From the NCBI GenBank assembly GCA_020051775.1, contig JAGVQJ010000069.1, forward strand, positions 15,235 to 79,234: 64,000 nucleotides of DNA, in the 5' to 3' direction. Made by a program: the position numbers and the translations under genes. Shown here piece by piece: positions 26,438 through 57,751 of this stretch (the first letter of the stretch is position 1; every line of letters starts with the position of its first letter). The notes beneath the pieces were generated by a model, which did no database searches, was not told where the DNA came from, and was given only the letters and a program-made list of their open reading frames with translations. Source of the stretch: Calditrichota bacterium. Its GTDB lineage: Bacteria > Electryoneota > B3-LCP.

Positions 26438-27892
26438 TTGCGTAGAGAAACGCTAAAGACCTGGTTCTCGCACTGCCTGCTTTTGATCGCCCTACCCCTA
26501 TGCGTCTGGGGCGAGACGCACGTTAAAGGTTTCGTTTCCGGAACTTGGGATATTCTGGGAACCCCTTACATCGTGGATAGCTCCCTGGTCATCGAAGAAA
26601 ACGACACTTTATTTATCGAGCCAGGTGTAACTATCCTCTTCCAGGGGCCTTTTTTCATTAAAATCAATGGCTGTCTCCGAGCTCAAGGAACGGTCTCTGA
26701 TTCCATCAGAATTTGGGATGAAAATAAAGCCAACTGGACCGGACTCCATTTTATGCCCTCCTCGCACGACTGCATTATAAATTATGTGTCTATTAAGTAC
26801 CCGGTTTGGGGTATTTATGCCTATTATTGTAGTGAAACGTCACCTTTAAATATATTACACTCAAATATTTACGCACAATCGGTTGCTGTCTGGGGTGCAT
26901 TCTCCAAGTTTAATCTTTTAAATTCCACAGTGATATGCGATTCTTTGGATGCTAAAGCTATCTATTTAAATCATTCCGATGCTCATATACAGGAATGCTA
27001 TATCCAGGCCAGCCGGTATCAAGACCAGGGAGTGGCTATGGGTATCTATAAGGTTAATTCAAAGCCGGAAATTTGGCAAAATACCATACGGGTTGACGCC
27101 TCGCAGAGAGCCCACGGAATTTGGTCGCAGACCAGCCCTAAAGCAGATATATCCTTCAACTTGATTCACATCACCTCATCCTATTATGCCAATGGAGGTT
27201 TCTTCCTAGCCAGCAGCCCCGATTTCGTGAACAATACGGTCATTATGGAATCCGAATTTGCCTTTTGCGACGGGCTGCACCTTTTGCAAAATGCCAGTCC
27301 TATCGTAGATAACAATATATTTGCCGGCGATGGTCCGAATTCTTTTGGTATCTATGTGGCGGAAGGCTGTGAACCGGATATTTTATATAGTGATTTTTTC
27401 AACCTGACGCCAACCTCCGCCGGTTACAGTTTGGGAACCGGTTGCATTGATGAAGACCCCATTTTTGAAGGACCCGAACAGGGTAATTTTACCTTGGAAC
27501 GACATTCGCCTTGCATTAATGCCGGCAATCCCGCCCGCGTTGAGGATCCTGACTCCACGGTCTCAGATATGGGCTGTTTTTACTTCAATACACAGGTCGG
27601 CGTAGAACCCGAGCCGTTCGTCCCACCGGCCTCATTCACCTTGATTCAAGCCTTTCCAAATCCTTTCAACGCTCAAAGTGTCATTCGCTTGACGCTCCCC
27701 ACCACCCAGACCGGATCGCTGGTTATTTATGACCAACAAGGTCGCATCGTTGAAACCATCAAGACAGGGATCTTCTTCACCGGGGAAAGTCGCTTTAGTT
27801 GGGACGCTTCTAGATTCGGCTCTGGTATCTACTGGGCAACATTGAGAACCGATCGTGGAACTCAAGTTCTCCAACTTACACTCATCAAATAA
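26438..27892 (+). CDS. Secreted protein with T9SS C-terminal sorting domain
   Basis: 484 aa. N-terminal signal peptide. C-terminal ~80 aa FPNPFNAQSVIRLTL...IYDQQGRIV...GIYWATLRTD matches the T9SS CTD (Por secretion tail). Confidence 0.65.
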   Translation: MRRETLKTWFSHCLLLIALPLCVWGETHVKGFVSGTWDILGTPYIVDSSLVIEENDTLFIEPGVTILFQGPFFIKINGCLRAQGTVSDSIRIWDENKANWTGLHFMPSSHDCIINYVSIKYPVWGIYAYYCSETSPLNILHSNIYAQSVAVWGAFSKFNLLNSTVICDSLDAKAIYLNHSDAHIQECYIQASRYQDQGVAMGIYKVNSKPEIWQNTIRVDASQRAHGIWSQTSPKADISFNLIHITSSYYANGGFFLASSPDFVNNTVIMESEFAFCDGLHLLQNASPIVDNNIFAGDGPNSFGIYVAEGCEPDILYSDFFNLTPTSAGYSLGTGCIDEDPIFEGPEQGNFTLERHSPCINAGNPARVEDPDSTVSDMGCFYFNTQVGVEPEPFVPPASFTLIQAFPNPFNAQSVIRLTLPTTQTGSLVIYDQQGRIVETIKTGIFFTGESRFSWDASRFGSGIYWATLRTDRGTQVLQLTLIK

Positions 27893-27916
27893 TTCATGGA
27901 TAGAATAGATATATGG

Positions 27917-27943
27917 AAAAACCGGCTATGGCCGGTTTTTTTG
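27917..27943 (+). terminator. Rho-independent terminator
   Basis: aaaaaccggctatggccggttttttt: 6-bp GC stem followed by T7, immediately after the stop at 27892. Confidence 0.7.
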
Positions 27944-28056
27944 TGCAATTTTTTCATCCACGAGAAAAATCGCACAATTTTCCTTGCATTGTGTGCAAAT
28001 TAATATTAAATTTAATCGCAAAGCAATTGCACATTGTGCATTTTATGCAGGAATAT

Positions 28057-29046
28057 ATGCGGCGATTTATCCTACTCCTGGTTCTCAGCGCTGAGCTGCT
28101 GATTTGGGGTTGTGACGTTCCTCGCAACAATCCTTATGATCCAGACGCTGAAAATTACCTCGGGCCAATGGGATCAATACAGGGGCAAGCAACTAGCCTC
28201 TCCGGAATCGGCCTCGATAGCGCACTTGTCAGCAGCCTGGCCGATACGAACGGGTATGTTGTCTCCGCCACCACCAATTCACAGGGATTTTTCACAATTT
28301 CAAATATTCAAACCGGCTCTTATCAACTGGTTTGCACTCGAGCCGGTTACATAGCCGATACTCTGACTTGCCTGGTAAATCTCGGATTGCCTACTATTAT
28401 AAATTTCCGTATTGACGCTATACCTGTTATCCAGAATTTCAGGATTACTTCCCAATATATTGATTGGGGCGACGTCCCGCCGTTCCTGGATCGCGCATTT
28501 TTCGCCCTGATAACAGTGTTCGATGCTGACGGCTTTTCCAACATAAGTTCCCTGAATTTACTGCGTGACGGCTATATTGATACTAATTTTGTGGCCCTGG
28601 ATTCCGCTTCGGGATCGCTCTCTTATCATTCTCTTCGATTACCACAAACCGTTTTTCCGGGTGACAGTATCGGATTGAATCTGGTCGGCGATCTTTTCGC
28701 TTGCACCGTCTGGGATGATTCCGGTGCCTCTGATGTCGCTGTTGACTATGTCGAAAGACTACTCCCCGAGATTCCGACCTTGCCTCCCAATAATCCCATC
28801 ATTCAACAACAGCCATTTCTGCGCGAATGGAATTCTTACAATGTTTCTTATCCCTATGTTTACAATGTCAGAATCTTCGATGATTCCAGTAATTTACTGG
28901 TTTGGTCCCAAATGGGGATTCCCAGCACTACTTTAAGTGTCAGTTTATCTTTGCCGCTGGAGTCGTATTATTGGACCCTTGAGATCGAAGACGAATATGG
29001 TAACACAGCCCGATCACGTCCGGATAATTTCGTCGTGTATAATTGA
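28057..29046 (+). CDS. Putative lipoprotein with carboxypeptidase-regulatory-like beta-sandwich domain
   Basis: Track ORF starts at 27913. Plausible start MRRFILLLVLSAELLIWGC (lipobox-like) at 28057 or 28045. SATTNSQGFFTISNIQTGSYQLVCTRAGYIAD resembles CarboxypepD_reg. Confidence 0.5.
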   Translation: MRRFILLLVLSAELLIWGCDVPRNNPYDPDAENYLGPMGSIQGQATSLSGIGLDSALVSSLADTNGYVVSATTNSQGFFTISNIQTGSYQLVCTRAGYIADTLTCLVNLGLPTIINFRIDAIPVIQNFRITSQYIDWGDVPPFLDRAFFALITVFDADGFSNISSLNLLRDGYIDTNFVALDSASGSLSYHSLRLPQTVFPGDSIGLNLVGDLFACTVWDDSGASDVAVDYVERLLPEIPTLPPNNPIIQQQPFLREWNSYNVSYPYVYNVRIFDDSSNLLVWSQMGIPSTTLSVSLSLPLESYYWTLEIEDEYGNTARSRPDNFVVYN

Positions 29047-29107: not shown

Positions 29108-30607
29108 ATGGCAGAAAATAACTCTTTGATGGATCCTCAGCAGCTTAAGGCCTTGGTCGAAGTGGGGCAGGCGATTAACTCCATTTCGCAGAAGGAGCCC
29201 CTTCTGCAGAAGGTTTTGGATATTGCCACTGAGGCGATTCAAGCTGAACGCGGATTTCTGCTTTTACGCAACGACTCCACGCATGAAATGCGGATCGTTG
29301 TGGCTCGCAATATCAGCGAGCATCAAGCAGCGGATATCCTACGGCCCTCCTCCAGCGTCGTCAATCAGGTTTTGGATAGCAACGTCGGCGTGTGGTCGGT
29401 TAAACCTCTGGAGGATTTTGGAGGCTCCCAATCAGTAATGAACATGAAACTAACTGCAGTGGCTTGCGTCCCCTTGGTGTTGAAAGGGACGCCCATTGGC
29501 GCCATTTACCTGGATAGCACCATCAACCGCCAGCAGTTTAACAATACTACGTTGAACTTTTTACAGGCCTTCGCCAATCAGGCGGCCATCGCCATCGAAA
29601 ACGCCAATTTTATCGAAGAGCTACAACTTGAAAAAAATTGGCTGCAATCCGAACTGGAACGCACTTATGCCTTCCGCGAGATTATCGGGGCCAGTCCTAA
29701 GATGCAGGCCGTTTTCGACATCATGCGCAAGATCCTGAATTCCGATATCTCCGTTCTTCTGGAAGGCGAATCCGGCACCGGTAAGGAATTGGTCGCCAGG
29801 GCTATCCATTACAATAGCCACCGCAAGGACAAGTCCTTTGTGGCACAGTTTTGCGGCAACCTGTCGGAGAATTTGCTGGAAAGCGAATTGTTCGGTCATA
29901 AGAAGGGTTCCTTCACTGGGGCCATCAACGACAAACGCGGATTGTTCGAGGTGGCCGATGGGGGCACTTTCTTCTTAGATGAGATCGCCGATATCAGCCC
30001 GGTCATACAGGCCAAGTTGCTGCGCGTCCTGCAGGAAGGTACCTTCCGGCGTGTGGGCGATACCGAATATCGCAAGGTGGACGTGCGCATTATTTCTGCC
30101 ACCAATAAAAATCTCAAGGTCGAAGTAAAGAAAAGCAATTTTCGCGAAGACCTATTCTATCGTTTGAATGTCATCACTATCACCATGCCGCCGCTGCGCG
30201 AGCGCCGCAGTGACATCCCGCTCTTGGTGCAACACTTCCTGCGTAAAATCGCCGATAAATCAGGCCAGAAAGTCAAACGGCTTGCGCCCGAAGCGATCCG
30301 CGCTCTGACTAACTATAACTGGCCGGGAAACGTTCGCGAGTTGGAAAACACGATCGAACGTGCCGTCGTTCTCTCCGGGGAAGAGTCCATCACTTTGAAA
30401 GAATTGATCATACCGGAATCTGACGGCGACGGACTGAAGTCCAAAACGCTTAAAGAACAGGAAAAAGAGATAGTGATCAAGGTGTTGGACGAGTGCGAAG
30501 GCAACAAAACCAAGACCGCCGAAGTTCTAGGAGTGTCACTGCGCTGGCTGCATTATAAACTAAATGAATGGCAGGTAGTCAAACCCGTACGATCCATTCA
30601 GGAATGA
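29108..30607 (+). CDS. Sigma54-dependent transcriptional activator, GAF-AAA+-HTH (Fis family)
   Basis: 499 aa. N-terminal GAF-like region, Walker A GESGTGKE, GAFTGA-type loop (GSFTGA), Walker B FFLDEI, C-terminal HTH. Confidence 0.9.
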   Translation: MAENNSLMDPQQLKALVEVGQAINSISQKEPLLQKVLDIATEAIQAERGFLLLRNDSTHEMRIVVARNISEHQAADILRPSSSVVNQVLDSNVGVWSVKPLEDFGGSQSVMNMKLTAVACVPLVLKGTPIGAIYLDSTINRQQFNNTTLNFLQAFANQAAIAIENANFIEELQLEKNWLQSELERTYAFREIIGASPKMQAVFDIMRKILNSDISVLLEGESGTGKELVARAIHYNSHRKDKSFVAQFCGNLSENLLESELFGHKKGSFTGAINDKRGLFEVADGGTFFLDEIADISPVIQAKLLRVLQEGTFRRVGDTEYRKVDVRIISATNKNLKVEVKKSNFREDLFYRLNVITITMPPLRERRSDIPLLVQHFLRKIADKSGQKVKRLAPEAIRALTNYNWPGNVRELENTIERAVVLSGEESITLKELIIPESDGDGLKSKTLKEQEKEIVIKVLDECEGNKTKTAEVLGVSLRWLHYKLNEWQVVKPVRSIQE

Positions 30608-30644: not shown

Positions 30645-32459
30645 ATGATCCCGGAAGGAGAATTCGAGGGCTTCCGCGTTGAGGAGGTGCTTTCGCGCAG
30701 CAGCACAGCAACGGTTTATCGCGCCTTCCAGCATTCATTGAAGCGTCCCGTACTGATCAAGGAATTGCGTCCCGAACTCATCCAGGATAAGGATGTCCTG
30801 GAGCGATTTGAGCGCGAGGCTCAAGTATGCGCTCGAATCAAGCACGAGAACATCGTGGATATCTACGACCGTTCCATGCAGAAAGACCGCATTTTCTTGA
30901 TAATGGAGTACGTTAAGGGAGGTTCGCTGGAATCGTTGCTGGCGGATTATCCTCGCGTGCCTCCCACATTGGCGCTGGCGATCATTCTTCAGACCCTGCG
31001 AGGCTTGGCTTATGCCCATTCCCAGGGCGTTATACATCGCGACATCAAACCCGGTAATATTCTTATATCCCGAGACGGCTGGGTTAAAATCACAGACTTT
31101 GGCTTGTCTATGCTGGAAGGCGCGCCCGGCATCACGCAACCGGGAGCGGTGGTGGGGACGCCGGCCTATCTGGCGCCTGAAGCCATCAGCGGTGCCGCTA
31201 TCACCCAAGCCAGCGATATTTTTTCTTTGGGCGTCACTTTCTACCAGCTATTGACAGGCCAGAAAATATTCTACGCGGAACACTTCTCGGACAGCCTGAA
31301 AAAGGTCTTGAACTATCATCCCCCGCCGCTGGGACAATGGCGCGATGATCTTTCTCCTGAACTTGACCGCATCGTCCTGCGGATGCTGGAAAAGCAGCCA
31401 TCCAAACGTTGGTCAAACGCCGGCGACATTCTCAGCGCACTGGAAAATCAAGGATTGACCGCGAATTTAAGCAATCCAAAGCAGATAATCCGCGAATATT
31501 GGGAGAATCCGAATGACCACCAGCAAGAGGTAACACCTTCACCCACAAACCACTACTTAAAAGTCCGAAAACGCGGAAAGTTAATCCGTTGGCTGTCTCT
31601 CGCCATATTCGTTCTGGCGGTAATAGTATTTGTAATGATGCGTCGTGAGCCTGTTCCGATAATTAACGAAGGCTTGAAATCCCAGACCCCCGGGATTATG
31701 ACCACCGATACGGTAAAGAGCCTCACAGCCCGACCGCAATCGGATACCCTCAATCGTGAAACCATTAATCAAGATACCTTGGCCATTCGAGCCGGTGCCA
31801 AGCCGGACGCCAATCAAAGTGGTGATCGGTCTTCGGTTTCTCGGACCGATCCCATTAAGATCGAACCCAAACCAACACCGATAAAAGCGCCGTCAAAACA
31901 GGAACCCCCACCGGTCCAGCTTGCCGACGCTCGTCCGGCTCGTCTCAAAGTGCAGTGCGACCCCTGGGCGGACGTCTATATGGATGATGTGTTGATTGAT
32001 AAAACTCCCTTTGAATCGGCTTCGATAACTCCCGGCCGACACCAATTGGCCTTTCGTCACCCTGCTTTCCCCCCGGTTTTTCGAGAAATTGACGCCAAAC
32101 CTGGTCAGGATATTCAATTGAATGTCAACCTCTGGAGTACTGTGGGGCGCATTTATGTTTTGGTGGATACTTGGGCAGAAATTCACGTTGATGGCCGCAA
32201 AGTAGGTGTGACGCCTCTTCAGGAACCCTTGATTGTCCCCCTTGGAGTCCATAAAATAGAGTTGAAAAATCCCAATTTTCCTCTCTGGGAAAGGGATATA
32301 ACTTTTCAACGGGATGATCCTCCCTGTACCTTGAAAGTGGATTTTAAAACCCCTCATGGATTACTTACACCTCAAGAACATCCCGTCCAGTCCCCAGCGG
32401 ATTCTCTGCGGTTGGGCAGCAATGTTGGCACTGTGGGCGGTGATTCCCTGCGTCCTTAG
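30645..32459 (+). CDS. Ser/Thr protein kinase with C-terminal PEGA domains
   Basis: 604 aa. HRDIKPGNIL, DFGLS, APE motifs; a TM segment; two C-terminal PEGA-like modules (KVQCDPWADVYMDDVLIDKTPF..ITPGRHQLAF; IYVLVDTWAEIHVDGRKVGVTPL). Confidence 0.85.
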   Translation: MIPEGEFEGFRVEEVLSRSSTATVYRAFQHSLKRPVLIKELRPELIQDKDVLERFEREAQVCARIKHENIVDIYDRSMQKDRIFLIMEYVKGGSLESLLADYPRVPPTLALAIILQTLRGLAYAHSQGVIHRDIKPGNILISRDGWVKITDFGLSMLEGAPGITQPGAVVGTPAYLAPEAISGAAITQASDIFSLGVTFYQLLTGQKIFYAEHFSDSLKKVLNYHPPPLGQWRDDLSPELDRIVLRMLEKQPSKRWSNAGDILSALENQGLTANLSNPKQIIREYWENPNDHQQEVTPSPTNHYLKVRKRGKLIRWLSLAIFVLAVIVFVMMRREPVPIINEGLKSQTPGIMTTDTVKSLTARPQSDTLNRETINQDTLAIRAGAKPDANQSGDRSSVSRTDPIKIEPKPTPIKAPSKQEPPPVQLADARPARLKVQCDPWADVYMDDVLIDKTPFESASITPGRHQLAFRHPAFPPVFREIDAKPGQDIQLNVNLWSTVGRIYVLVDTWAEIHVDGRKVGVTPLQEPLIVPLGVHKIELKNPNFPLWERDITFQRDDPPCTLKVDFKTPHGLLTPQEHPVQSPADSLRLGSNVGTVGGDSLRP

Positions 32460-33198
32460 TTTGACCACGGAACTTCAGGCACAGGCAGAAAAATCCAGCG
32501 CTGTAGAAGTGGTGGAATCGCTCTACAATGAAGGGCGTTTCCGCGACGCCGAGCTCACCGCTCTTCGAACTCTTCAGGAGCCTTCTGACTTGGCCGCCGT
32601 AGATCGGGGACGGATTCACAGAGCGTTGGGATTTACCTACGTGGCTATGGGTGAAAATGACAAAGCTCGCAGTCAGTTCACCGAATGGCTGGTCATTGAT
32701 CCTCTGGCGCAATTGGATTCGGTCTATGTATCACCGAAGATCATTACTGTATTTCGCGAAGCGCAAACCGCCTTAAAACAGATGCGCGAACCAGCCCGCG
32801 ACCCAGCGGGATTGAGGACCCAACTTTCCGCTACGAAGCGTTCGATGCTGTTCCCCGGCTTGGGTCAGCTTTACACTGGGAAACAGACCAAAGGTATTGC
32901 CATGTTTGCTTCCGAAATATTGCTGTTAGGCGCTTTCGCATACTGTCAGGTTCAATATAGCCAGGCGCGGGACGATTATTTTCAAGAGCGCGATCCTGCT
33001 CAAATGTCCGACCGATACTCTACATACAATAATTATAACCGGGCACGGTATGCCACTCTGGCTTTAGCGGCCGGTGTCTATTTTTATTCTCTTTACGATG
33101 CCCTCTCCAATGAACCTCCCAAGCCGGTGACCAGCCCGCTCACTTTATCCATCTGGCCACAGCCGAATCGAATGGTCACACTCACTTTGCGCTATTAA
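32422..33198 (+). CDS. Hypothetical secreted/membrane TPR-like protein (DUF5683-like C-terminus)
   Basis: Track ORF from 32356 overlaps the kinase gene. ATG at 32422 gives MLALWAVIPCVLSL signal. C-terminal LFPGLGQLYTGKQTKG motif. Confidence 0.45.
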   Translation: MLALWAVIPCVLSLTTELQAQAEKSSAVEVVESLYNEGRFRDAELTALRTLQEPSDLAAVDRGRIHRALGFTYVAMGENDKARSQFTEWLVIDPLAQLDSVYVSPKIITVFREAQTALKQMREPARDPAGLRTQLSATKRSMLFPGLGQLYTGKQTKGIAMFASEILLLGAFAYCQVQYSQARDDYFQERDPAQMSDRYSTYNNYNRARYATLALAAGVYFYSLYDALSNEPPKPVTSPLTLSIWPQPNRMVTLTLRY

Positions 33199-33289
33199 AT
33201 TGTGCATATCTTGCAGACTCTACATCCAATTCGCAGGCATGGTTATAGGTAACGAACGCAAACCATGCGAAGTTACCCGTATTAGCAAT

Positions 33290-33305
33290 TGGCACAGGTT
33301 TTGTA
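33290..33305 (+). promoter_or_regulatory. Candidate sigma54 (-24/-12) promoter TGGCAC-N5-TTGTA
   Basis: TGGCACaggttTTGTA: -24 element perfect, -12 element has GT instead of the consensus GC. A sigma54 activator gene lies 3 kb upstream. Confidence 0.3.
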
Positions 33306-33340
33306 ATTACTTGCAGGTGAACAGGAGGTCCAAGCACTGA

Positions 33341-33480
33341 AACGGTTGCGGTAGCCAAGCACTGAGTACAACACGGTTAACACGGATTGAATTCGGCACG
33401 GTTCGCTTTGGTTTGAAAACGGCACGGTTCTCACGAGCTGAATGAAGCACGGTTTCCTTGATTTGCATGACTTAACGGTT
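33341..33480 (+). repeat. Array of 7 direct repeats with core (G)CACGGTT; the last four are phased at 25-26 nt
   Basis: Cores at 33341, 33372, 33381, 33396, 33422, 33447, 33473. Non-coding; lies between the candidate sigma54 promoter and a strong terminator. Confidence 0.6.
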
Positions 33481-33560
33481 TACGACCTCAAAAGCCGAGG
33501 GGAGATCACCTGCAGTGAGATGATGGACGGGATACCTTGTTGCACCTCCCACTTCGGGAA

Positions 33561-33596
33561 CACCGATGCGCACATGGCGCATCGGTGTTTTTTTTG
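33561..33596 (+). terminator. Rho-independent terminator
   Basis: caccgatgcgc-acatg-gcgcatcggtg followed by T8. Confidence 0.8.
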
Positions 33597-33670
33597 ATGT
33601 ACCTCTTGCGTAGGCGCGGTTAATTTCGTATTTTAATACTATAACACGAATCCTAATCCAGGGTAATACC

Positions 33671-35680
33671 ATGAAATGCACCATGATCTTGCTTACTGTT
33701 GCGGCGCTCGCAATACTTTCCTTACCGCAATTCTCAATCCAGGCCGGCAGCATTCATCCCGCACTGATGGGTCCCAATCGGTTTATCCTGGAAGGCGATT
33801 CGGTGGACGTATGGGTATTGTTTCGTGACCGGGGGTTTGAAAGCTCCCAGGCTCTGGAAGATGCCCTTCTCAGAGCGGAGCGCAGCCTGTCACTCCGTGC
33901 CGCTGATCGCCGAGCGAAAATGCGCAGGGGATCATTGGTTACTGAAAGCGATTTGCCTGTAAATGCTGAATTTGTGCGACAAATTCTCGACGTGGGTGGA
34001 CGCTTTCGCACTGTCAGCCGTACGATCAATGGTCTATCGGTGAGACTACCGCGAATACTCCTGGAAAAGGTAGCCAAATTCCCCTTTGTCGCCAAGATCC
34101 AACCGGTGGCCAAAGGCTGGCGATATGAACCGCAGACTGAATGGATCGAGGGGATGGGGGAGACCCCCAACCAAATGGATGAGACTGATCGGCTCAACTA
34201 TGGCAATTCCCTAAACCAGTTGAATCAGATCAACGTGGTGGCAGCGCATGACGCCGGATGGACCGGCCTGGGGGTTCTCGTCGGCATGCTCGACACCGGC
34301 TTTTACCGCCCGCACCAGGCGCTGGTCAATCAACCGGTCATTGCCCAATATGATTTCATCCAAGGGGACACCACGGTCATAAATCAGACTGGCGATGACC
34401 CGAATCAGCACAATCATGGCACCTATACCTGGTCAACCCTGGGAGGAGCCTATTCCGGCAGTTTATACGGTCCTGCCTATCAATCCCAATTTATTTTAGG
34501 AAAGACAGAAAGCGTTGCATTTGAACAACCGGTCGAAGAGGATTGGTATGTGGCTGGTATGGAATGGGAAGATAGCTTGGGAGTCGCCGTGATCTCCACC
34601 TCGTTGGGTTATCTGGACTGGTATCAATTCTCCAACATGAACGGTTTAACGGCGGTAACGACCATCTGCGTGAATCAGACGGTGGCCAATGGCGTGGTCT
34701 GCGTAACGGCCAACGGCAACGAGAACGGCTCATCCTGGGATCACATTATCGCCCCATCCGATGCCTTTGCAGTCATTGCCTGCGGAGCTGTCAACAGTAC
34801 CGGCACGATCGCCAGCTTCAGCTCGCATGGCCCCACCTACGACGGACGCATCAAGCCGGAGGTCTGCGCCCGCGGCGTCAGCACCTGGTGCGCAACACCC
34901 ACCTCCATCAGCAGCTATAGCGGAGTAAGCGGCACCTCGCTGTCTACACCGTTGGTTGGGGGAGCTTGCGCCCTGGTAGTGCAGGCGCATCCTACCTGGA
35001 CGCCCATTCAAATCCGTGCCGCCCTCATGAATACGGCCGATAATCACACCTCCCCCGATAATATTTACGGTTGGGGTGTCATTGATGTCATGGCGGCCAT
35101 CGCCTACAACTTCCCGCCCAACATTCTGGTACAGAATCCTCAAGCCGGCCCCCTCGTTGTCCCCACGGATAGCATCGTCAACTTCAGCGTGATTGTGATG
35201 GATTCCCTGGGCGGCAGCCTGACTTATCACTGGTGGATTGATGAGAACGAATTGGTAGCCGGTCCGGATTCAACGTTCCGGTATCGGTGGCAACAGGCGG
35301 ATACCAGTGTAGTCAAATGCGTAGTGATCAACGAAGAAGGCGGCAGCGATAGCACCGACTGGGACGTTCAGGTTTATATGCCTCTGGGGGTAGTCAATCC
35401 TGAATTGGCCGCGCCGCAGGAGTTTGCGCTGCACAACCCACATCCAAACCCCTTCAATCCTTCCACCACCCTCAGATATCAGGTATCAGCTTTCAGCCAT
35501 GTCAACTTAAAGGTCTACGATACTGCCGGGCGGTTGGTCAGTACCCTGGTGGATAACTGGCAGCCGGCAGGAACTCACCAGGTTAATTTCGATGCTTCCA
35601 GTCTAGCAGCCGGCGTCTATCTGGCGCGGATGACAGCGGGGGACTTCACAGCGACGCAGAAATTGGTGCTGGTGAAATAG
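33671..35680 (+). CDS. Subtilisin-like serine peptidase (S8) with T9SS C-terminal domain
   Basis: 669 aa. Signal peptide. Asp (VGMLDTG), His (NHGTY) and Ser (GTSLSTPLVGG) catalytic motifs. C-terminal FPNPFNPSTTLRYQV...KLVLVK sorting domain. Confidence 0.85.
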   Translation: MKCTMILLTVAALAILSLPQFSIQAGSIHPALMGPNRFILEGDSVDVWVLFRDRGFESSQALEDALLRAERSLSLRAADRRAKMRRGSLVTESDLPVNAEFVRQILDVGGRFRTVSRTINGLSVRLPRILLEKVAKFPFVAKIQPVAKGWRYEPQTEWIEGMGETPNQMDETDRLNYGNSLNQLNQINVVAAHDAGWTGLGVLVGMLDTGFYRPHQALVNQPVIAQYDFIQGDTTVINQTGDDPNQHNHGTYTWSTLGGAYSGSLYGPAYQSQFILGKTESVAFEQPVEEDWYVAGMEWEDSLGVAVISTSLGYLDWYQFSNMNGLTAVTTICVNQTVANGVVCVTANGNENGSSWDHIIAPSDAFAVIACGAVNSTGTIASFSSHGPTYDGRIKPEVCARGVSTWCATPTSISSYSGVSGTSLSTPLVGGACALVVQAHPTWTPIQIRAALMNTADNHTSPDNIYGWGVIDVMAAIAYNFPPNILVQNPQAGPLVVPTDSIVNFSVIVMDSLGGSLTYHWWIDENELVAGPDSTFRYRWQQADTSVVKCVVINEEGGSDSTDWDVQVYMPLGVVNPELAAPQEFALHNPHPNPFNPSTTLRYQVSAFSHVNLKVYDTAGRLVSTLVDNWQPAGTHQVNFDASSLAAGVYLARMTAGDFTATQKLVLVK

Positions 35681-35906: not shown

Positions 35907-38546
35907 ATGCGAAAAATCCCACCTTTAATTCTATCCTTGGTCCTGATTACCATCCCTGTCCATGCAGATACCCATATTCCCGCTGGACCGGTGTCAGGTT
36001 TTTGGGCTGCTTCCGGTTCACCCTACCTGATTGAAGGAACCATTACTGTGCTGGCCGGTGATTCGCTGACGATAGCTCCGGCATGTACGATTCTTTTTCA
36101 AGGGAACTACAAATTGATCGTGCAGGGCTGGCTCCTGGCGGTCGGTACTCAAGGTGATTCCATAATCTTTACCTCGAACAGTGCGAGCGCAAGCTGGCAT
36201 GGGCTCCGGTTCGAGAACTCCGCCGACAGCAGCCGACTCTCTTATTGTGTTATTCGCTATGGGGAAGCTTCCGGCGCGCACCCGGAATGCCGGGGGGGCG
36301 GCATATATTGCGATCATTCTCATCCCGTGATAGCCCATTGCAGTATCCGGCAAAACACGGCGGTGGATGGTGGAGGCCTATCCTGCTATAACTATTCCAA
36401 TCCCGTGATATCCCAATGTGCCATAACCGGCAACCAGGCCGGGATGGGAGGAGGCGTTCGACTAAAAGTCAACTCCAGTCCCTCTATCACCAATTGCCAA
36501 ATTCAAGGCAATGTGGCAGAATTCAATGGTGGAGGCATCAATTGCACTCAAAACTGCAATTCGATTATTCGATCCTGCGTTATCACCGGAAATCAGATCA
36601 CAGGAAGCCCGAGGAAGGGCGGCGGCATCTACTGTGATGCTTCGAGTCCCGTCGTAACCAATTGCACTATTACCAATAATTCTGCCTATAACGGCGGAGG
36701 AATCTTTCTTTATAATTCGACGGCGGTCATTGATAGCAACACGGTCACCGATAACATCGGAGCGGGATTGTACTACAAAGCAGCCGGCCCAGTCATTAGC
36801 CATGATCTGATTGCCGATAATTCGGTGGAAGGGATATTCGCAGATTCGTTAGGTTCCGGGATCATAACTGAATGCACGATTCAACATAACGCATGCGGCA
36901 TCCATTTAAACCATTCCAGCCCGGGAATTGTAAATTCCATTGTGACAGAGAATTTTAGTTTCATAGGCGCCGGGATATTATGCGAAAACGATTCCGATCC
37001 GCTAATCAGCCGCTGCCTTATTTCCAACAATGAAGCTTGGTACTCTGGCGGTGGCATCGCCATCGAAGGTTACTGCGATCCTCTGATTCAGTATTGTATA
37101 ATTTATAATAATAGCGCTGATGGAGTTTGGGGTGATATGGGCGGCGGTGGAATTTATTGCGGCTGGGAACAGGCGCCACAACCCACCATTAATAACTGTG
37201 TCCTCTATGGGAATACCACAGCTTGTAACGGTGGAGGCATCGGATATGACAACTTCTCGATTCCGCATGTTAGCGATTGCCTCTTTCAGAATAATTCTGC
37301 TGGAGGATATGGTGGTGGAATGAGTTGTATCCCTTCAACTTACGCTCAAATCAATCGCTGCCGATTCGTAGGAAATTCAGCGGCAAACGGCGGAGGAATT
37401 CGCATAAATTGCAGTCCGGTGTGTTTCTTGACAACATGCTCATTTGTTGATAACCAGGCGAATTCAGGTGGCGGTATGTACATTTTTGGGTATGAATCAA
37501 GTAACAGTCGTACAGTTGACAAATGTACCTTTTATGCAAATCGGGCGGCTGTCGGCAGTGGTATATATTGTTACTATAGTTGCGCAACTTTGTGGTTAAC
37601 TAACAGCATCCTCTGGGGTAATAGTCCTGTAAGCAACCAGTTGGTCTACAGTAGCGGAGGCGTCAGTTACAGTGATGTCCAGGGCGGATGGACAGGGGTG
37701 GGAAATATTAACGAAGACCCCGAATTTATAAGCGCCGCGAATTATGATACTCGTTTGTTGTCTAATTCGCCCTGCATTGATTCTGGAAATGCCAGCGTAA
37801 TCTACAACGATCCTGACGGAACTCGCGCTGATATGGGCGCTTTCTATTACGATCAGTCCCTGCCGCTGCGAGTATCCTTAAGGCCGCACGAGATCCCATC
37901 CTTGATTCCGACGGAAGGGGGGCGCTTGGATTACACCATATACCTGAGTAATCGAGAAAATGTCTCGCATCTGGCCCGAGTTTGGTGTGACCTCACTCTG
38001 CCTGATGGAACTATTTTCGGCCCGGTGCAGGACCCGCTGATAGTTACAGTCGGTCCTGGCCTGAATCTCAGTCGCAAGCGCAATCAGGCAATACCCGCCA
38101 CGGCTGCAATGGGGGTCTATCTTTTCAATGTATACGCCGTAGTTGGATCAGATACCTCAAAGGATAGCTTCATATTCGGGAAGTTGGGATCGGGGGCTCA
38201 GGGTTTGGGATGCGGCGGTTGGGCGATCACGGGTGATGATTTTGTCGGAGGGACAAACGCTACCGTGTCAACGTCGGGGTCGAGGATGCCCTCGACTATG
38301 ATGATTTTCCCCAACCCCTTCAATCCATCCACAGCTATCAGCTACCAGTTAACAGCTTTCAGCCACGTCAACTTAAAGGTCTACGATACGGCCGGGCGGT
38401 TGGTCACGACGCTGGTGGATAAGCAGGGGGAGGCGGGAGCGCACGAAGTAACATTTGATGGATCAGCGTTGGCTTCCGGGATTTATCTCGCGCGTCTAAC
38501 GGCAGGGGATTTCACCGCAACACAGAAATTGGTGTTGGTGAAGTAG
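35907..38546 (+). CDS. Secreted right-handed parallel beta-helix repeat protein with T9SS C-terminal domain
   Basis: 879 aa. Signal peptide. Many NxxGGGI(y/f) and CxITxN repeats. C-terminal ~80 aa nearly identical to the S8 peptidase CTD. Confidence 0.75.
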   Translation: MRKIPPLILSLVLITIPVHADTHIPAGPVSGFWAASGSPYLIEGTITVLAGDSLTIAPACTILFQGNYKLIVQGWLLAVGTQGDSIIFTSNSASASWHGLRFENSADSSRLSYCVIRYGEASGAHPECRGGGIYCDHSHPVIAHCSIRQNTAVDGGGLSCYNYSNPVISQCAITGNQAGMGGGVRLKVNSSPSITNCQIQGNVAEFNGGGINCTQNCNSIIRSCVITGNQITGSPRKGGGIYCDASSPVVTNCTITNNSAYNGGGIFLYNSTAVIDSNTVTDNIGAGLYYKAAGPVISHDLIADNSVEGIFADSLGSGIITECTIQHNACGIHLNHSSPGIVNSIVTENFSFIGAGILCENDSDPLISRCLISNNEAWYSGGGIAIEGYCDPLIQYCIIYNNSADGVWGDMGGGGIYCGWEQAPQPTINNCVLYGNTTACNGGGIGYDNFSIPHVSDCLFQNNSAGGYGGGMSCIPSTYAQINRCRFVGNSAANGGGIRINCSPVCFLTTCSFVDNQANSGGGMYIFGYESSNSRTVDKCTFYANRAAVGSGIYCYYSCATLWLTNSILWGNSPVSNQLVYSSGGVSYSDVQGGWTGVGNINEDPEFISAANYDTRLLSNSPCIDSGNASVIYNDPDGTRADMGAFYYDQSLPLRVSLRPHEIPSLIPTEGGRLDYTIYLSNRENVSHLARVWCDLTLPDGTIFGPVQDPLIVTVGPGLNLSRKRNQAIPATAAMGVYLFNVYAVVGSDTSKDSFIFGKLGSGAQGLGCGGWAITGDDFVGGTNATVSTSGSRMPSTMMIFPNPFNPSTAISYQLTAFSHVNLKVYDTAGRLVTTLVDKQGEAGAHEVTFDGSALASGIYLARLTAGDFTATQKLVLVK

Positions 38547-38561
38547 TTACAAGATCCCCCA

Positions 38562-38612
38562 GTCCCCCTTAATAGGGGGGAAAAAAACCGCAGCCTTTAC
38601 CGGCTGCGGTTT
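38562..38612. terminator. Bidirectional intrinsic terminator between convergent genes
   Basis: cccccttaatagggggg-aaaaaaa-ccgcagcctttaccggctgcggtttt. On the minus strand this reads as stem + T7 directly after the hydrogenase protease gene. Confidence 0.75.
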
Positions 38613-38666
38613 TCGATCTCCAGGGTGTCCGAAGCGCTTGGTCGCCTCGGATTGCGGGTCGAGCAT

Positions 38667-39128
38667 CTAATGCTCCTCCACCAAGTCCTCCTTGATCCTC
38701 TTTACGGCTTCCCCTACGCCATCCAGGACTGCCGACGAACATCCTTCTTGTAAAGTATAGGGATCTGCAACTTCAATTCCGTAAATTGTAATTTGCTCGG
38801 GGATCATCATCCCCATCATTTTCCCCAATTTCAGCGCTTCGGAAAAGCTCAAATCATGAAGGCAGGAGGCATGGAGATCGCCACTCAGCTCCTCCACTGA
38901 CATTTTCGTCACAGTTCCCGGTTCAGTGCGTCCGGTCATAAGGGCATCAATGATTATAGCTTTATCGAAACCGGTTATTTCATCCAGAATGCGCAATCCT
39001 CCGACGGAAGCGGTGCGAATTTCCACCTCTGGTGCGACGACCCATCTCCTCAATTGTTCCGCCGCCTCGCAACCAGCGCCGTCGTCGTAGAGGATGGGAT
39101 TACCCAAGCCCAGGATGACGGTTTTCAT
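38667..39128 (-). CDS. Hydrogenase maturation endopeptidase (HycI/HoxW family)
   Basis: 153 aa. MKTVILGLGNPILYDDGAGCEAAEQL typical of the family. Last gene of the hydrogenase operon. Confidence 0.8.
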   Translation of the reverse strand: MKTVILGLGNPILYDDGAGCEAAEQLRRWVVAPEVEIRTASVGGLRILDEITGFDKAIIIDALMTGRTEPGTVTKMSVEELSGDLHASCLHDLSFSEALKLGKMMGMMIPEQITIYGIEVADPYTLQEGCSSAVLDGVGEAVKRIKEDLVEEH

Positions 39129-40603
39129 GATCGCCGGAATACCTTCACGATTTCGCCGCGCGGATTTCGCAGATTAATTTCCAGCGGCATTTGCCCCGCT
39201 AAAGTATGCGTGGCACAACCGAAGCAGGGATCGTATGCGCGGAAGGCCATCTCCACCATGTTCAGAATGCCCTCAGTGACTTCCACGCCCGGTTTGATTA
39301 CCCCCTGCGCCGCTTTTTTGATGGACATGCTGATGGCGGCATTGTTGTTGGTCGTCCCTACAATCAAGTTGGCGTCGGTAACGATGCCTTTGTTATCGGT
39401 CACGTAGTGATGGTACAAAGTTCCTCGGGGAGCTTCCACCACACCCACGCCTTCATGCGGGATGTTCTTTGGGATAGTGCGAATGTCGGTGTCGCAGACG
39501 GAAGGATCTGACATCAATTCCAGGGCATGCTCGGCGGCATAAAGAAGCTCAATGACCCGCGCCCAATGAGTCGCCAGAGTTTGATGCACGGGAGTGCGGC
39601 CGGTTTTGTCGCCGGTCAGAGTTTCATAGAATTTTTCGTATTCGGCCTGTGCCAGCGGAGTAGCCATGCCCTCGGAAGCATTTAAGCGCGATAGCGGTGT
39701 AGCCCGATATACACCCGATTGCGGGCCGTCTACCAAACCCTTCCAACCGACCTGCTTTAAGTACGGATATTTCAGATAACTATACGATTCGACATGTTCG
39801 GCGATATGCTGCAAGTAGTCCTTGGCTTCGAACTTGGCGAATTCCTTGCCATCCGGCCCTACCACGCGGATCATGCCATCGTAGAAGTTCACTTTGTTGT
39901 TCTGATCCACCATACCCATATAATAGGTCTTGTGGGTATAAGCGTCAGAGAGGATCAGATCCACATAACCTTTATTGGCGATGACGATGTCGTGGAGCAC
40001 CTTAATAGTGAACTGCCCAAATTCCACAAAATCCTTGCAGTAACCAATCCACTTTTGGCGATCTTCATCCTTTAAACCGATGGTTACACCGCCCGGAATT
40101 GAGGAGACCTGGTGAATCTTCTTACCACCCAGCGCTTGAATGATCTCCTGAGCCTGCGCCCTATGCTTGATGACCCGCTTGCCGGCATCAATACCCACCT
40201 TGGCAATCAATCCCAGGATGTTGCGCTCCGCAACCGGCGCGCTCGGGCCGCAGACAAAATCTGGCCCCGCCAGGATATAGAAGTGCACGGCATGGTCGGC
40301 GGCGAAAAAGACGCTGTACAGAAGCTCGCGCAATTTCTTGGCGGTGGGAGGAATGTCCACGCCGTAAACGGCGTCGCAGGCCTTGGCGGAGGCCAGGTGG
40401 TGAGCTTCCGGACAGACTCCGCACAATCGCGTCGTGATGCGCGGCAGTTCCTCCACCGGACGTCCCTGGCAGAATTTCTCGAAGCCGCGCAATTCCGGCA
40501 CCTGGAAATACGCGTTGGCCACACTGCCATCGTCGTTAAGGAAGATATCTATCTTACCGTGACCTTCCAGTCGCGTTATGGGATCAATCTTGATCTGCTT
40601 CAT
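39125..40603 (-). CDS. [NiFe] hydrogenase large subunit, group 3 (MvhA-like)
   Basis: 492 aa. RLEGHGKIDIF, N-terminal RLCGVCPEAH (CxxC) and C-terminal DPCFGCATH Ni-Fe ligand motifs. Confidence 0.9.
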   Translation of the reverse strand: MKQIKIDPITRLEGHGKIDIFLNDDGSVANAYFQVPELRGFEKFCQGRPVEELPRITTRLCGVCPEAHHLASAKACDAVYGVDIPPTAKKLRELLYSVFFAADHAVHFYILAGPDFVCGPSAPVAERNILGLIAKVGIDAGKRVIKHRAQAQEIIQALGGKKIHQVSSIPGGVTIGLKDEDRQKWIGYCKDFVEFGQFTIKVLHDIVIANKGYVDLILSDAYTHKTYYMGMVDQNNKVNFYDGMIRVVGPDGKEFAKFEAKDYLQHIAEHVESYSYLKYPYLKQVGWKGLVDGPQSGVYRATPLSRLNASEGMATPLAQAEYEKFYETLTGDKTGRTPVHQTLATHWARVIELLYAAEHALELMSDPSVCDTDIRTIPKNIPHEGVGVVEAPRGTLYHHYVTDNKGIVTDANLIVGTTNNNAAISMSIKKAAQGVIKPGVEVTEGILNMVEMAFRAYDPCFGCATHTLAGQMPLEINLRNPRGEIVKVFRRS

Positions 40604-41586
40604 GATTGTTTCCTCACCTCCATCTGCCCGCGCCCCAATATGGACGCCGCCAGGTTAAAGCGGTAGAATGTCCCTACTGGATCGGTTAAAGTGGCCAGTA
40701 TGCTGTCAATCTCCTCCGGTTCAGAGGCGTCAATGACTGAGGACAATGCTGAAATCATCTTCGCGCCGGGATCGAGGCAGTCCGGAGGCGGCCCGTAGCA
40801 TCCTCGACAAGGGACATTGACGGCTGTGCACTTGGCTCCGCAACCGGATCGTGTCGCCGGCCCACAGCAGACGATCCCCTGATCCATAAGGCATTCTTTT
40901 GGGTTAGGAATGATTTCATGTGGGCGGACGAACTTCTTGATCTTTTTCTCCTTCCGCTCACGGCCGCATTCATCACAACAGGTTTTATCGCCGGCGCCCA
41001 GGATGGTTCCCTTGGGCGGTAACGGTTGGCCGTTTTTTAGGATGTCAATGACCGCTACGACTACGTTCAGGATTTGATCCGATTGGGGTGGGCAGCCTGG
41101 GACATAGTAATCAACATCCACAACCTGATTCAGCGGTTTCACAGTATCCCACATGGTGGGGATTTCAATCGTCCCTTCCGGCATCTTGTTGATCGGCTGC
41201 GGGAAGATGCCGCTCTCATTCACCGTGGAAGGCGATTGTTTGTAGACGTAATCCCAGATCTGCTGCTTGGTGAAGAGGTTGGCCAAGCCAGGAATGCAAC
41301 CTTCTTGAGCGCAGGATCCGAACGCCACCAACACTTTGGACTTGGCGCGCAGCAGTTTGGCCATGTGCTCGTTCTCGGAATTACGGATGGATCCATTGAA
41401 GAGGCACAGAGTGATTTCCCCATCGGGCATAGCTTCCACGTCTTTGTATTTAAAATCCATAGCCACTGGCCACAGCACGATATCGAAGAAGTCCGCGATG
41501 GTCAGGATATGCTCTTCAACGTCCACGACGGCTATTTCACAGCCGCCACAGGACGCCGCCCAATATAAGGCCAGTTTTGGTTTCAC
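40600..41586 (-). CDS. [NiFe] hydrogenase small subunit (MvhG-like) with extra C-terminal Cys-rich extension
   Basis: 328 aa. LALYWAASCGGCEIAVVD proximal-cluster motif plus further Cys clusters (GCPP, CCDECG, CCGPATRSGCGAKC). Confidence 0.8.
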   Translation of the reverse strand: MKPKLALYWAASCGGCEIAVVDVEEHILTIADFFDIVLWPVAMDFKYKDVEAMPDGEITLCLFNGSIRNSENEHMAKLLRAKSKVLVAFGSCAQEGCIPGLANLFTKQQIWDYVYKQSPSTVNESGIFPQPINKMPEGTIEIPTMWDTVKPLNQVVDVDYYVPGCPPQSDQILNVVVAVIDILKNGQPLPPKGTILGAGDKTCCDECGRERKEKKIKKFVRPHEIIPNPKECLMDQGIVCCGPATRSGCGAKCTAVNVPCRGCYGPPPDCLDPGAKMISALSSVIDASEPEEIDSILATLTDPVGTFYRFNLAASILGRGQMEVRKQS

Positions 41587-41695
41587 AGGTTATCTCCACT
41601 TATGTCATTGCGAGGAAGCCCTTCAGGGCTAACGAAGCAATCTCCTTCGGACCAGATTGCTTCACCGGCTAAAGTCGGGTTCGCAAAGACTTGTT

Positions 41696-42136
41696 TTATG
41701 CTGCGTTATAGGTGCCTTCAAGAATGCTGTCGCTGGTCAATTTCAAGGGACCCAGGGTTCGTATGGTCTGCGTGAAATCCGCTGAAAATCGAGCCCAGCG
41801 GTCGCCCTCGCTAGCGCTGACCCAGGTCAGGCGGAAGCGATCCGGATGAATGCCCAGATCGGCCAACACCCGTTTAATTAAGTGCGCTCGGCGCAGCATT
41901 TTGAAATTGCCTTCCTGATAATGGCAATCTCCGGGATGGCAGCCCGATACGATCACGCCGTCAGCGCCCGCCTGGAAAGCTTTGAACACGAAGACCGGAT
42001 CCATTCGCCCGGTGCACATCATGCGAATAACGCGAATATTGGGTGGATAGTGCAACCTGGAAGTGCCTGCCAGGTCGGCGCCGGTGTAAGAACACCAGTT
42101 GCACAGAAATCCGGCAATCTTGGGTTCCCAGCTCAT
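41696..42136 (-). CDS. mvhD: MvhD/FlpD-type hydrogenase iron-sulfur subunit
   Basis: 146 aa. FLCNWCSYTGADLAG...CTGRMDP...VSGCHPGDCHY conserved pattern. Confidence 0.85.
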   Translation of the reverse strand: MSWEPKIAGFLCNWCSYTGADLAGTSRLHYPPNIRVIRMMCTGRMDPVFVFKAFQAGADGVIVSGCHPGDCHYQEGNFKMLRRAHLIKRVLADLGIHPDRFRLTWVSASEGDRWARFSADFTQTIRTLGPLKLTSDSILEGTYNAA

Positions 42137-43938: not shown

Positions 43939-44008
43939 TACAATCCTCCGTACAGGTCACGGATTCAGAGGGACATCCACGGTAGTGTCCTTGCGTATCC
44001 AATAGTTA

Positions 44009-45889: not shown

Positions 45890-45894
45890 GACTT

Positions 45895-46281
45895 CTATCC
45901 TCTCCGTTCGCTGCCGATCGCCAGCGCGAACTCCATGATGGGTTTGCCCGCCAACAGATGCTCGCCGAAAATTTTGCGGGTCTTCTCAGGCGTTAGATCA
46001 ATGTACTTTACCGGCGTTTCATCCGCCAACTCGACGGTGGCCATCGGTTCGTGGCTGCATAATCCTCCGCAACCGCTGGTAGTCACCAGGATATCGCCCA
46101 CGCCAGCCTTCTCCACTTCTTCTAAGACCGTCTTCATAATATCGCGAGCGCCGGCGGCAATGCCGCACGTGCCCATGTGCACGGTGATCCGGGCGCGGTG
46201 CTCGCCGCCTTCGCGCAGGGCGATGTGCTTGCGAGCGTCATCCCGCATTTTCGCCAGATCTTGAATCGTCAACTTAGGCAT
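45895..46281 (-). CDS. Thioredoxin-like [2Fe-2S] ferredoxin
   Basis: 128 aa. MGTCGIAAGA...SGCGGLCSHEP pattern. Confidence 0.7.
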   Translation of the reverse strand: MPKLTIQDLAKMRDDARKHIALREGGEHRARITVHMGTCGIAAGARDIMKTVLEEVEKAGVGDILVTTSGCGGLCSHEPMATVELADETPVKYIDLTPEKTRKIFGEHLLAGKPIMEFALAIGSERRG

Positions 46282-46396
46282 GATAGATCCTCTTGCTGTT
46301 CGTGCCGGGGTCGGTAATGACCCCGACTACAAAATCAGTGGATGACGTGATTTAATTCCGTAGTCAAGGTTGTCCCTGACCTTGACATGCTGCACT

Positions 46397-46915: not shown

Positions 46916-46918
46916 CAG

Positions 46919-48520: not shown

Positions 48521-48556
48521 AGTAGACTCATCCCATTCGTATAATCCAAGTGTAAC

Positions 48557-49849: not shown

Positions 49850-49855
49850 GCTTGT

Positions 49856-50654: not shown

Positions 50655-50661
50655 GGAAATT

Positions 50662-57715: not shown

Positions 57716-57751
57716 CATGGGACAGTTACGTTCCCACGATGGATAATTACG

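Follow-up and report, generated by a model that had tools for sequence, protein, structure and literature searches.

What is encoded in a gap between two genes where short direct repeats, running in register with one another, lie between a promoter-like sequence and a strong terminator? We studied such a locus in a 64,000-nt stretch of the Calditrichota bacterium contig JAGVQJ010000069.1 (hereafter the window; all coordinates are window positions). The region in question, 33199–33670, separates a DUF5683-like gene (32356–33198, + strand) from a gene of an S8 peptidase (33671–35680, + strand). The original prediction, made from the letters of the window, had offered three readings of it: a sigma-54-dependent small RNA (sRNA) whose repeats titrate an RNA-binding protein, an iteron-like array of protein-binding DNA repeats, or a regulatory leader of the S8 peptidase gene. 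Our comparison of homologous loci points to the first. Positions 33316–33595 of the + strand most likely encode an independently transcribed sRNA of ~280 nt, as predicted from sequence comparison, and this RNA belongs to a family that is not in Rfam.

Metagenomes and metagenome-assembled genomes contributed another 13 distinct homologous loci, which together with the window make 14 members: the window, L001, L002, L003 (=L125), L126, L127, L128 (=L134=L135), L129, L130, L131, L132, L133, L136 (=L137) and L138. The loci were gathered through homologues of the S8 peptidase, through a DNA-pattern scan of metagenome contigs and through a look-up of orthologues of the neighbouring activator gene. 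The last route led to L138, a locus of the candidate division LCP-89 bacterium B3_LCP (GCA_005223185.1), whose activator is 71% identical to that of the window. In all 14 members, TGGCA[CT]-N5-TTGT is followed by a strong terminator 170–280 nt downstream. The RNA family occurs in uncultivated bacteria of the FCB group.

The RNA gene of the window and the sequences in front of it are composed as follows:

33202–33225, + strand: putative upstream activator sequence of three NTGCAN hexamers (GTGCAT, TTGCAG, CTACAT) with a 9-bp period, starting 88 bp upstream of TGGCAC
33290–33304, + strand: sigma-54-type promoter TGGCAC-AGGTT-TTGT
33325–33330, + strand: 5′ strand of stem P2 (GAGGTC), pairing with 33484–33489 and covarying
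33331–33483, + strand: array of six 25–26-nt two-part units forming the apical loop of P2, delimited with a position weight matrix and dynamic programming
33484–33489, + strand: 3′ strand of stem P2 (GACCTC), pairing with 33325–33330
33495–33504, + strand: 5′ strand of stem P3 (CCGAGGGGAG), pairing with 33546–33557
33509–33545, + strand: loop of P3, with a master unit CCUGCAGUGAGAUGAUGGACGGGAUAC (33509–33535) and then a half unit CUUGUUGCAC (33536–33545)
33546–33557, + strand: 3′ strand of stem P3 (CTCCC-A-CTTCGG), supported by covariation and by separate folds
33559–33595, + strand: intrinsic terminator with a 13-bp perfect stem, a 5-nt loop and T8, the T-run being on the + strand only

The original prediction had left the folding of this region to comparative analysis, and two stems and the terminator were indeed found to covary across the homologous loci. 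We folded an alignment of 12 members from which the interior of the variable region had been removed (alignment A2) with RNAalifold and obtained three helices, which correspond to P2, the outer part of P3 and the terminator. Standard pairs are formed by 96.2% of the cells, compared with 32–46% when the 3′ partners are slid by 1–3 columns. Compensatory changes, on both sides of a pair, are present in 14 of the 26 pairs, and none of 500 column shuffles reached the observed covariation score. In the terminator stem, 8 of the 14 pairs show compensatory changes across members.

The individual sequences illustrate how these stems are kept. P2 is GAGGUC/GACCUC in most members, GAGGUU/AACCUC in L132 and L138, and GGAGAUC/GAUCUCC in L136. 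When 12 members (all but L126 and L138) were folded one at a time, a long P3 stem appeared each time with differing sequences: GGCAGAGGGAUC/GAUCCC..UCUGCC in L002, GGCAGAAU/AUUCUGCC in L132, UAGUGaGAGGUUC/GAACCUCCACUA in L136 and, in another of these folds, CCGGCGGAG/CUCUGUCGG. A terminator with a 13–14-bp stem and T6–T9 is found in all members. The GC-rich hairpin with T8 that had been described for the window consists of 13-nt perfect arms (33559–33571 and 33577–33589) and a T8 ending at 33595. Since G–U pairs occur in P3 and in the terminator, and since the T-run follows the latter, the RNA is assigned to the + strand. Taken as a claim of its own, a real structured RNA gene on this strand is very probable.

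Two further structural ideas were dropped. Other members do not conserve a long-range stem between 33312–33320 and 33506–33514, part of which would also lie before the proposed transcription start. A kink-loop, suggested by CUGA followed by UGAUGG in the master unit and similar to archaeal D′/C′ boxes, lacks UGAUGG in L132, L136 and L138, and the array units have no second GA.

The members with a single unit in the P2 loop have a leader that is ~20 nt longer. In L002 (3794–3800), L003, L132 (3768–3775) and L138 (6879–6886), and in L126, whose leader has the same sequence as that of L003, it contains a CCUCC(U) element, which is complementary to the 5′ strand of P2 (GGAGGU) and also resembles an anti-Shine-Dalgarno sequence. 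Multi-unit members do not have it. Judging by complementarity, the element could compete with P2 and thereby act as a conformational switch.

The region does not look like a protein-coding one. Every + frame carries 2–8 stop codons because each unit carries UGA, and no small open reading frame (ORF) of the region matches Pfam. The lengths of the P2 loop differ by 72, 74, 96, 125 and 127 nt, and by 2 nt between close relatives; we took these differences, which as a set are not multiples of 3, as evidence that the sequence is non-coding. The earlier statement that no ORF of at least 60 aa lies here was not strictly true: a mechanical minus-strand ORF of 93 aa (33472–33753) overlaps the 3′ end of the region. 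It extends over the terminator, over a promoter and over the beginning of the S8 gene, and Pfam gave no match for it.

No known family accounts for this RNA. Rfam returned no family match at the gathering threshold for the window and nine loci, nor at E values up to 10 for the region and a single-unit member, and at relaxed E only chance-level matches were seen (a miRNA, STnc320 and SNORD36, E = 7.2). We rejected the C/D-box snoRNA suggested by the last of these (L131 3847–3905), which stems from GUGA-AAU-GAUGG of the master unit and its resemblance to D′/C′ boxes; this resemblance is absent in L132, L136 and L138.

A covariance model built from alignment A2 gave exactly one hit per member locus, and in the window as a whole no further one. 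It recovered L138, which was outside the training set, with 78 bits and E = 2e-20, and in 0.75 Mb of unrelated bacterial genomes it found nothing better than E = 0.9. A scan of a genome collection with the loose pattern GATGGACGGG-N15-45-CACCGAT yielded at least 120 chance loci, none of them with the full element, and the covariance model gave no match in 100 of these.

The original prediction had counted seven copies of a (G)CACGGTT core with the last four spaced at 26, 25 and 26 nt, as well as a duplicated 11-nt sequence. We located ACGGTT at 33342, 33373, 33398, 33424, 33449 and 33475 and a degenerate ACGGAT at 33383, with the same spacing of the last four, and found the exact 11-mer CCAAGCACTGA at 33330 and 33355. 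The seven cores are thus real, and the array is better described as six two-part units of 25–26 nt, which start at 33331, 33356, 33381, 33407, 33432 and 33457.

A profile seeded on single-unit loops and refined on the arrays gave the unit consensus nnUGnnYUGAA-n4-G-n-CACGGUU-nAC, with spacings of 23–26 nt between units. The best-conserved positions are G4, U8-G9-A10, C19-G20-G21-U22 and C26, while the spacer between the two boxes varies. In the 64 kb of the window, both strands included, CACGGTT occurs in 8 exact copies compared with 6.4 in whole-window shuffles. Four of the 8 lie within 83 nt in the array, spaced 25, 26 and 25 nt, so the total count is ordinary but the clustering and phasing are far beyond chance. 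A repeat search likewise returned a four-copy family of 21 nt with 25/26/25 spacing. Tandem Repeats Finder reported nothing for the array because the units are too degenerate for it.

Comparison of the P2 loops revealed how the array is built. The loop is exactly 26 nt long in six members (L002, L003/L126, L131, L132, L136 and L138). Longer loops measure 98 nt (L127, L128 and L129), 100 nt (L130), 122 nt (L133), 151 nt (L001) and 153 nt (the window). These lengths correspond to 1, 4, 5 or 6 units of ~25 nt, the window having six. Units 1, 2, 4 and 6 of the window and L001 are positionally orthologous, with diagonal identities of 0.65–0.77, and the array units of L128 and L129 correspond to each other in the same way. 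The arrays are therefore old and maintained rather than products of recent slippage.

The loop of P3 carries a further copy of the unit. This 27-nt master unit has the same layout of box 1, spacer and box 2 as the array units (YUGAA-N6-CACGGUU) and is better conserved; the half unit after it consists of box 1 only. Its GATGGACGGG is identical in 11 of the 14 members, with the variants GACUGG, GGACGGGC and GCACGGGC in L132, L136 and L138. In the family loci searched (L138 excluded), the strict two-part pattern occurs only inside this RNA, and 1.8 Mb of unrelated control DNA contains 2 hits.

We found no conserved pairing within the units, and single-sequence predictions for the interior of the array disagree among homologues. 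Mimicry of 5S rRNA, of the sarcin-ricin loop or of the tRNA T-arm was considered and discarded, as the likeness is present in single units and not in the consensus. That the units are functional binding modules seems likely to us.

The sequences upstream of the RNA point to the sigma factor that would drive its expression. Sigma-54 promoters have a −24 element, TGGCAC, with an invariant GG. After a gap of 5 nt comes the −12 element TTGCW, in which GC is invariant (PMC4253122). The promoter noticed in the original prediction, TGGCAC-N5-TTGT(A), is present at 33290–33304, its TGGCAC occupying 33290–33295, and only one other site in the window matches TGGCAC-N5-TTGC at ≤1 mismatch. With the usual −24/−12 spacing, transcription would start at about 33316.

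Two or three NTGCAN hexamers (mostly CTGCAC) with a 9-bp period follow directly after the stop codon of the DUF5683-like gene in all 14 members. They begin 75–89 bp upstream of TGGCA in 11 members and ~214–223 bp upstream of it in L127–L129; in most members a palindrome, GCAAGGATTGC, lies ~20 bp beyond them. At sigma-54 promoters, an enhancer-binding protein and activator sites ~80–150 bp upstream are expected. Here an activator gene is found in the operon immediately upstream, along with the hexamers as candidate sites. Hexamers and promoter together would be arranged as is usual for sigma-54 promoters that have an enhancer-like activator site. We consider it quite probable that the RNA depends on sigma-54 and on the neighbouring activator.

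In L127, L128 (=L134) and L129, an AT-rich insertion of ~135 bp (ATATAATATATTATTAATTTGTAAC...) lies between the hexamers and the promoter and shifts the hexamers from about −77 to about −214.

The original prediction had mentioned a sigma-54 activator gene nearby, and we confirmed one at 29108–30607. The genes around the RNA in the window are:

29108–30607, + strand: sigma-54 enhancer-binding protein with a GAF sensor, an AAA+ domain and a Fis-type helix-turn-helix (Pfam Sigma54_activat 1.9e-69, GAF, HTH_8)
30645–32459, + strand: Ser/Thr protein kinase with a PEGA domain, the second gene of the conserved operon (Pfam Pkinase 1.8e-55, PEGA)
32356–33198, + strand: DUF5683-like protein, the final gene of the operon (weak Pfam DUF5683 match, 9e-06)
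33606–33634, + strand: putative sigma-70-like promoter TTGCGT-N17-TATTTT of the downstream peptidase gene, assigned by consensus; it lies outside the RNA gene and delimits it
33671–35680, + strand: S8 peptidase with a type IX secretion sorting domain, a downstream neighbour outside the RNA unit (Pfam Peptidase_S8, Por_Secre_tail)

The kinase gene and the mechanical ORF of the DUF5683-like gene share ~100 nt (32356–32459). The true start codon of the latter is probably later, because alignments of homologues begin at ORF residues 4–73 (mostly 22–50).

Does the RNA belong with the operon upstream or with the peptidase downstream? The operon of activator, kinase and DUF5683-like gene precedes every member as far as the contigs reach, including six loci found by DNA pattern alone. 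The activator gene is present in 11 of the 13 other members, with 70–82% amino-acid identity to the window protein in window-to-locus tblastn, and the contigs of L001 and L126 end short of it. The kinase gene is syntenic wherever the contig extends far enough. A DUF5683-like gene was found in all 13 (by tblastn in 12, and as a called 279-aa gene in the same position in L138). Activator orthologues of KSB1, Calditrichota and Marinimicrobia are 56–63% identical, and with LCP-89 and Zixibacteria-labelled genomes included the range is 56–75%.

Downstream, a gene of a type IX-secreted peptidase is present in 14 of 14 loci, but it encodes an S8 peptidase in 13 of them, a count biased by the fact that most members were reached through S8 homologues, and a C25 peptidase in L138. 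In this LCP-89 locus, the RNA comes next after the activator–kinase–DUF5683 operon, and the start codon of a C25 peptidase with a type IX sorting domain lies 274 nt beyond the terminator. The S8 orthologue of the same bacterium lies elsewhere (L004, contig NJBN01000002.1), where there is neither the operon nor any match to the RNA; unrelated genes precede S8, and the usual UbiA and DUF362 genes follow it. Because B3_LCP keeps the RNA with the operon in front of C25 while its S8 locus lacks the RNA, we regard the RNA as a probable independent gene that moves with the activator module and not as an S8 leader.

In the window, L002, L003, L136 and L138, the stretch from the terminator to the peptidase gene contains the sequence TTGCNN-N17-TATNTT, which is present also in L004. 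A simple promoter scan had missed it because its −35 hexamer agrees with the consensus at no more than 3 of 6 positions. In L004, immediately ahead of the peptidase promoter (3915–3935), we noticed ATATACCGGTGTTTTTTT, which is close to the 3′ arm and T-run of the family terminator (ATATATCGGTGTTTTTTTT in L002). This stretch may be what remained when a deletion or rearrangement parted the RNA module from S8.

How might such a module work? We propose that the GAF-domain activator, encoded 2.7 kb upstream in one operon with the kinase and the DUF5683-like protein, binds the CTGCAC-type repeats at 33202–33225 and, once bound, would switch on the sigma-54 promoter at 33290–33304. The co-encoded Ser/Thr kinase perhaps controls the activator. 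Transcription would stop at the intrinsic terminator (33559–33595), and the RNA would fold into two stem-loops and the terminator, with P3 presenting the master unit and P2 one to six degenerate copies of it. In its entirety the molecule could thus serve as a multivalent display of a binding motif, the valency of which has been raised in some lineages by duplication of the unit. Up to and including this display, we give the reading a probability of about 0.6.

As to what is bound, we favour a decoy or sponge for an RNA-binding protein, whose output would be set by the kinase–activator–sigma-54 pathway. The protein decoy is favoured because conservation is two-part with a tolerant spacer, because the boxes drift between lineages and because no complementary targets were found in the window or in the 5′ regions of the downstream genes. 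The idea of a titrated protein remains tentative, at somewhat less than even odds. More doubtful still is its extension to a whole new post-transcriptional system of FCB candidate phyla, of which the RNA would be the decoy arm: a regulator recognising YUGAA-N6-CACGGUU would be titrated under control of the kinase and, through it, of the GAF activator. Were this true, lineages from which no such system is known would have a functional equivalent of Csr/Rsm or Crc/Hfq, and the system might control type IX-secreted proteases, the strength of the decoy being adjusted in evolution by duplication from 1 to 6 units.

Several observations speak against the multivalent sRNA or its parts. The −12 element reads TTGT, with GT for the canonical GC, in all 14 members, at an exact spacing; this deviation could reflect a clade-specific preference of RpoN or a deliberately weak −12 contact. 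The promoter, the start site and the transcript are all predictions. Single-sequence folding energy is unremarkable (z = −0.93 for the + strand and −0.88 for the minus strand), and predicted accessibility is no greater for the boxes than for the remaining RNA. The link to the activator operon rather than to S8 comes from one informative genome. We found no conserved gene of an RNA-binding protein in the neighbourhood and no copy of the motif in any mRNA leader within the limited DNA searched. In addition, the motif has neither the GGA core of CsrA sites nor the A-rich core of Hfq/Crc sites, and therefore indicates no known class of partner.

The same features can be read in other ways. An sRNA with several base-pairing seeds, in which every array unit and the master unit would bear one common seed for one or more target mRNAs, possibly cut into unit-length pieces so that more copies mean more active molecules per transcript, has a precedent in NrsZ, an RpoN- and NtrC-dependent RNA of one to six modules that is processed to active single modules (PMC4253122). 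The most conserved stretch of our RNA, UGAUGGACGGGU, does sit in the large loop of P3, as a seed would. We consider this a serious rival, although a less likely one. Conservation is split between two boxes with a variable 6–7-nt spacer instead of forming one contiguous seed, box 2 differs among members (GACGGG, GACUGG, GCACGGGC) with no identifiable co-varying target, and the units, unlike those of NrsZ, do not form hairpins that expose a seed in the loop. In the 64-kb window, sequences complementary to box 2 and to the master unit occur at chance level. Finally, RNAduplex pairing of the P3 loop with the 5′ regions of the downstream peptidase genes was no better than that of shuffled loops (z from −1.15 to +1.37 in 10 loci).

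A cis-acting leader, in which the sigma-54 transcript would read into the peptidase gene whenever a factor bound to the repeats blocked termination, would explain why the RNA lies directly upstream of such a gene, in the same orientation, in 14 of 14 loci. The exchange of S8 for C25 and the S8 locus of B3_LCP, which is devoid of the RNA, contradict the leader as originally predicted, as does the conserved sigma-70-like promoter beyond the terminator, to which the 274-nt gap in L138 can be added. Strong terminators in all members with no conserved competing antiterminator found, and a number of units that varies from 1 to 6 and so does not suit an attenuation protein of fixed geometry, likewise make a leader highly improbable. 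Even less credible is an operator or iteron-like array acting as DNA, the other reading that had been put forward. Its appeal lies in phased direct repeats of 25–26 bp in an intergenic region close to a regulated promoter. The array, though, is downstream of that promoter, bracketed by an RNA stem with compensatory changes, and all its units are oriented with transcription; in six members a single unit makes up the loop of exactly 26 nt, and a second copy occupies the loop of another covarying stem. A period of 25.5 bp, ~2.4 helical turns, would place successive sites on different faces of the DNA, and no replication or partition gene is nearby. Of the three readings offered, the sigma-54-dependent sRNA is therefore the one that fits the comparative evidence, while its second half, titration of an RNA-binding protein, stays a proposal. 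The motif is not of the CsrA-type GGA kind. The remaining ideas are effectively refuted. Decay of a coding sequence, which the original prediction had itself named as the case that would overturn it, could draw on the minus strand, where stop codons are few in some members; the lengths of units and the differences between loops are not multiples of 3, and there is neither a conserved ORF nor a Pfam match. A promoter followed by tandem repeats, a terminator and a gene is the layout of ToxI/ToxN loci, where tandem RNA repeats precede a gene of a ToxN/AbiQ-type endoribonuclease. Our locus bears a superficial resemblance to it, but its downstream genes encode secreted S8 or C25 peptidases rather than ToxN-like nucleases and six members have a single unit. 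A chance repeat is excluded by boxes and stems conserved across 14 lineages.

Among known systems, the closest analogue of the multivalent sRNA is NrsZ of Pseudomonas, whose gene adjoins ntrC and whose module number, one to six, depends on the species (PMC4253122). The two share a sigma-54-type promoter, a gene placed downstream of that of an activator and a variable copy number of the module (here 1, 4, 5 or 6). NrsZ modules are stem-loops that expose ACAGGCAG, are separated by spacer hairpins and are released by processing (PMC4253122). Our RNA instead has contiguous 25–26-nt units without conserved pairing in the loop of one stem, plus a separate master unit in a second stem-loop. It matches no Rfam family at threshold and has no homology to NrsZ in sequence or structure, and it comes from an uncultivated FCB-group lineage and not from Proteobacteria.

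Other sRNAs share parts of the design. The genes of CrcZ and CrcY adjoin the activator gene cbrB, and these RNAs carry several copies of a short single-stranded protein-binding motif, which is A-rich, of the AAnAAnAA type. They are described as sRNAs that depend on sigma-54 and counteract Hfq and Crc, two regulators that bind mRNA (PMC5113210). The proposed decoy logic would be the same here; the motif, YUGAA-N6-CACGGUU, is different, Rfam gives no match, and sequestration in our case is a proposal. CsrB, RsmX, RsmY and RsmZ resemble our RNA in their many short-motif repeats, in a copy number that varies among homologues and in a strong terminator. CsrA sites have a GGA core and are usually found in hairpin loops. 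In the RNA described here, the conserved core is ACGGU, GGA is sporadic, the units form no hairpins, the promoter is a sigma-54-type one and Rfam gives no match even at E up to 10, so it shows neither the multiple GGA motifs in hairpin loops nor the family model match of a CsrA sponge. Qrr, GlmY and Pxr have sigma-54 promoters with upstream activator sites and genes next to a signalling module. They differ in having no internal array of units and no homology to our RNA, and the module here is a eukaryote-like Ser/Thr kinase with a GAF activator, not a two-component pair. We conclude that the RNA family is new and that its regulatory design is a familiar one.

No experiments on regulation by RNA are known from LCP-89, Zixibacteria-like and related FCB candidate phyla, and a search of full-text literature found no paper joining LCP-89 and 'small RNA'. 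The locus provides a well-delimited, testable unit: a kinase and an activator, an enhancer-like site, a sigma-54-type promoter and an sRNA with a quantised module of variable copy number. An sRNA with repeated active modules, encoded after the gene of a sigma-54 activator, is a recurring design, which the locus would extend to a distant lineage. The covariance model and the defined motif can be used to seek the binding partner or the regulon in complete genomes. Type IX-secreted peptidases are constant neighbours of the RNA, which suggests that it is linked to secreted proteolysis, a process that bears on the degradation of organic matter by these sediment bacteria.

The wider surroundings of the module also show conserved traits. 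Upstream of the activator, both the window (26438–29046) and L138 (1–2568) encode a beta-helix protein with a type IX sorting domain and then a protein with a CarboxypepD_reg domain; the RNA and activator module is therefore flanked on both sides by genes of type IX secretion cargo. On the other side, UbiA and DUF362 genes directly follow S8 in L002, L003, L131 and L132. In the window ~18 kb lie between (35907–53142), occupied by a beta-helix type IX cargo gene and a minus-strand cluster of NiFe-hydrogenase, NuoF-like and Fe-S genes, and hydrogenase genes likewise come after S8 in L133 and L134. Further downstream, at 57523–57716 of the + strand, the window carries an FMN riboswitch (RF00050, 103 bits) upstream of a ribD-type gene (57792–58919), and this riboswitch is syntenic in L003 and L132.

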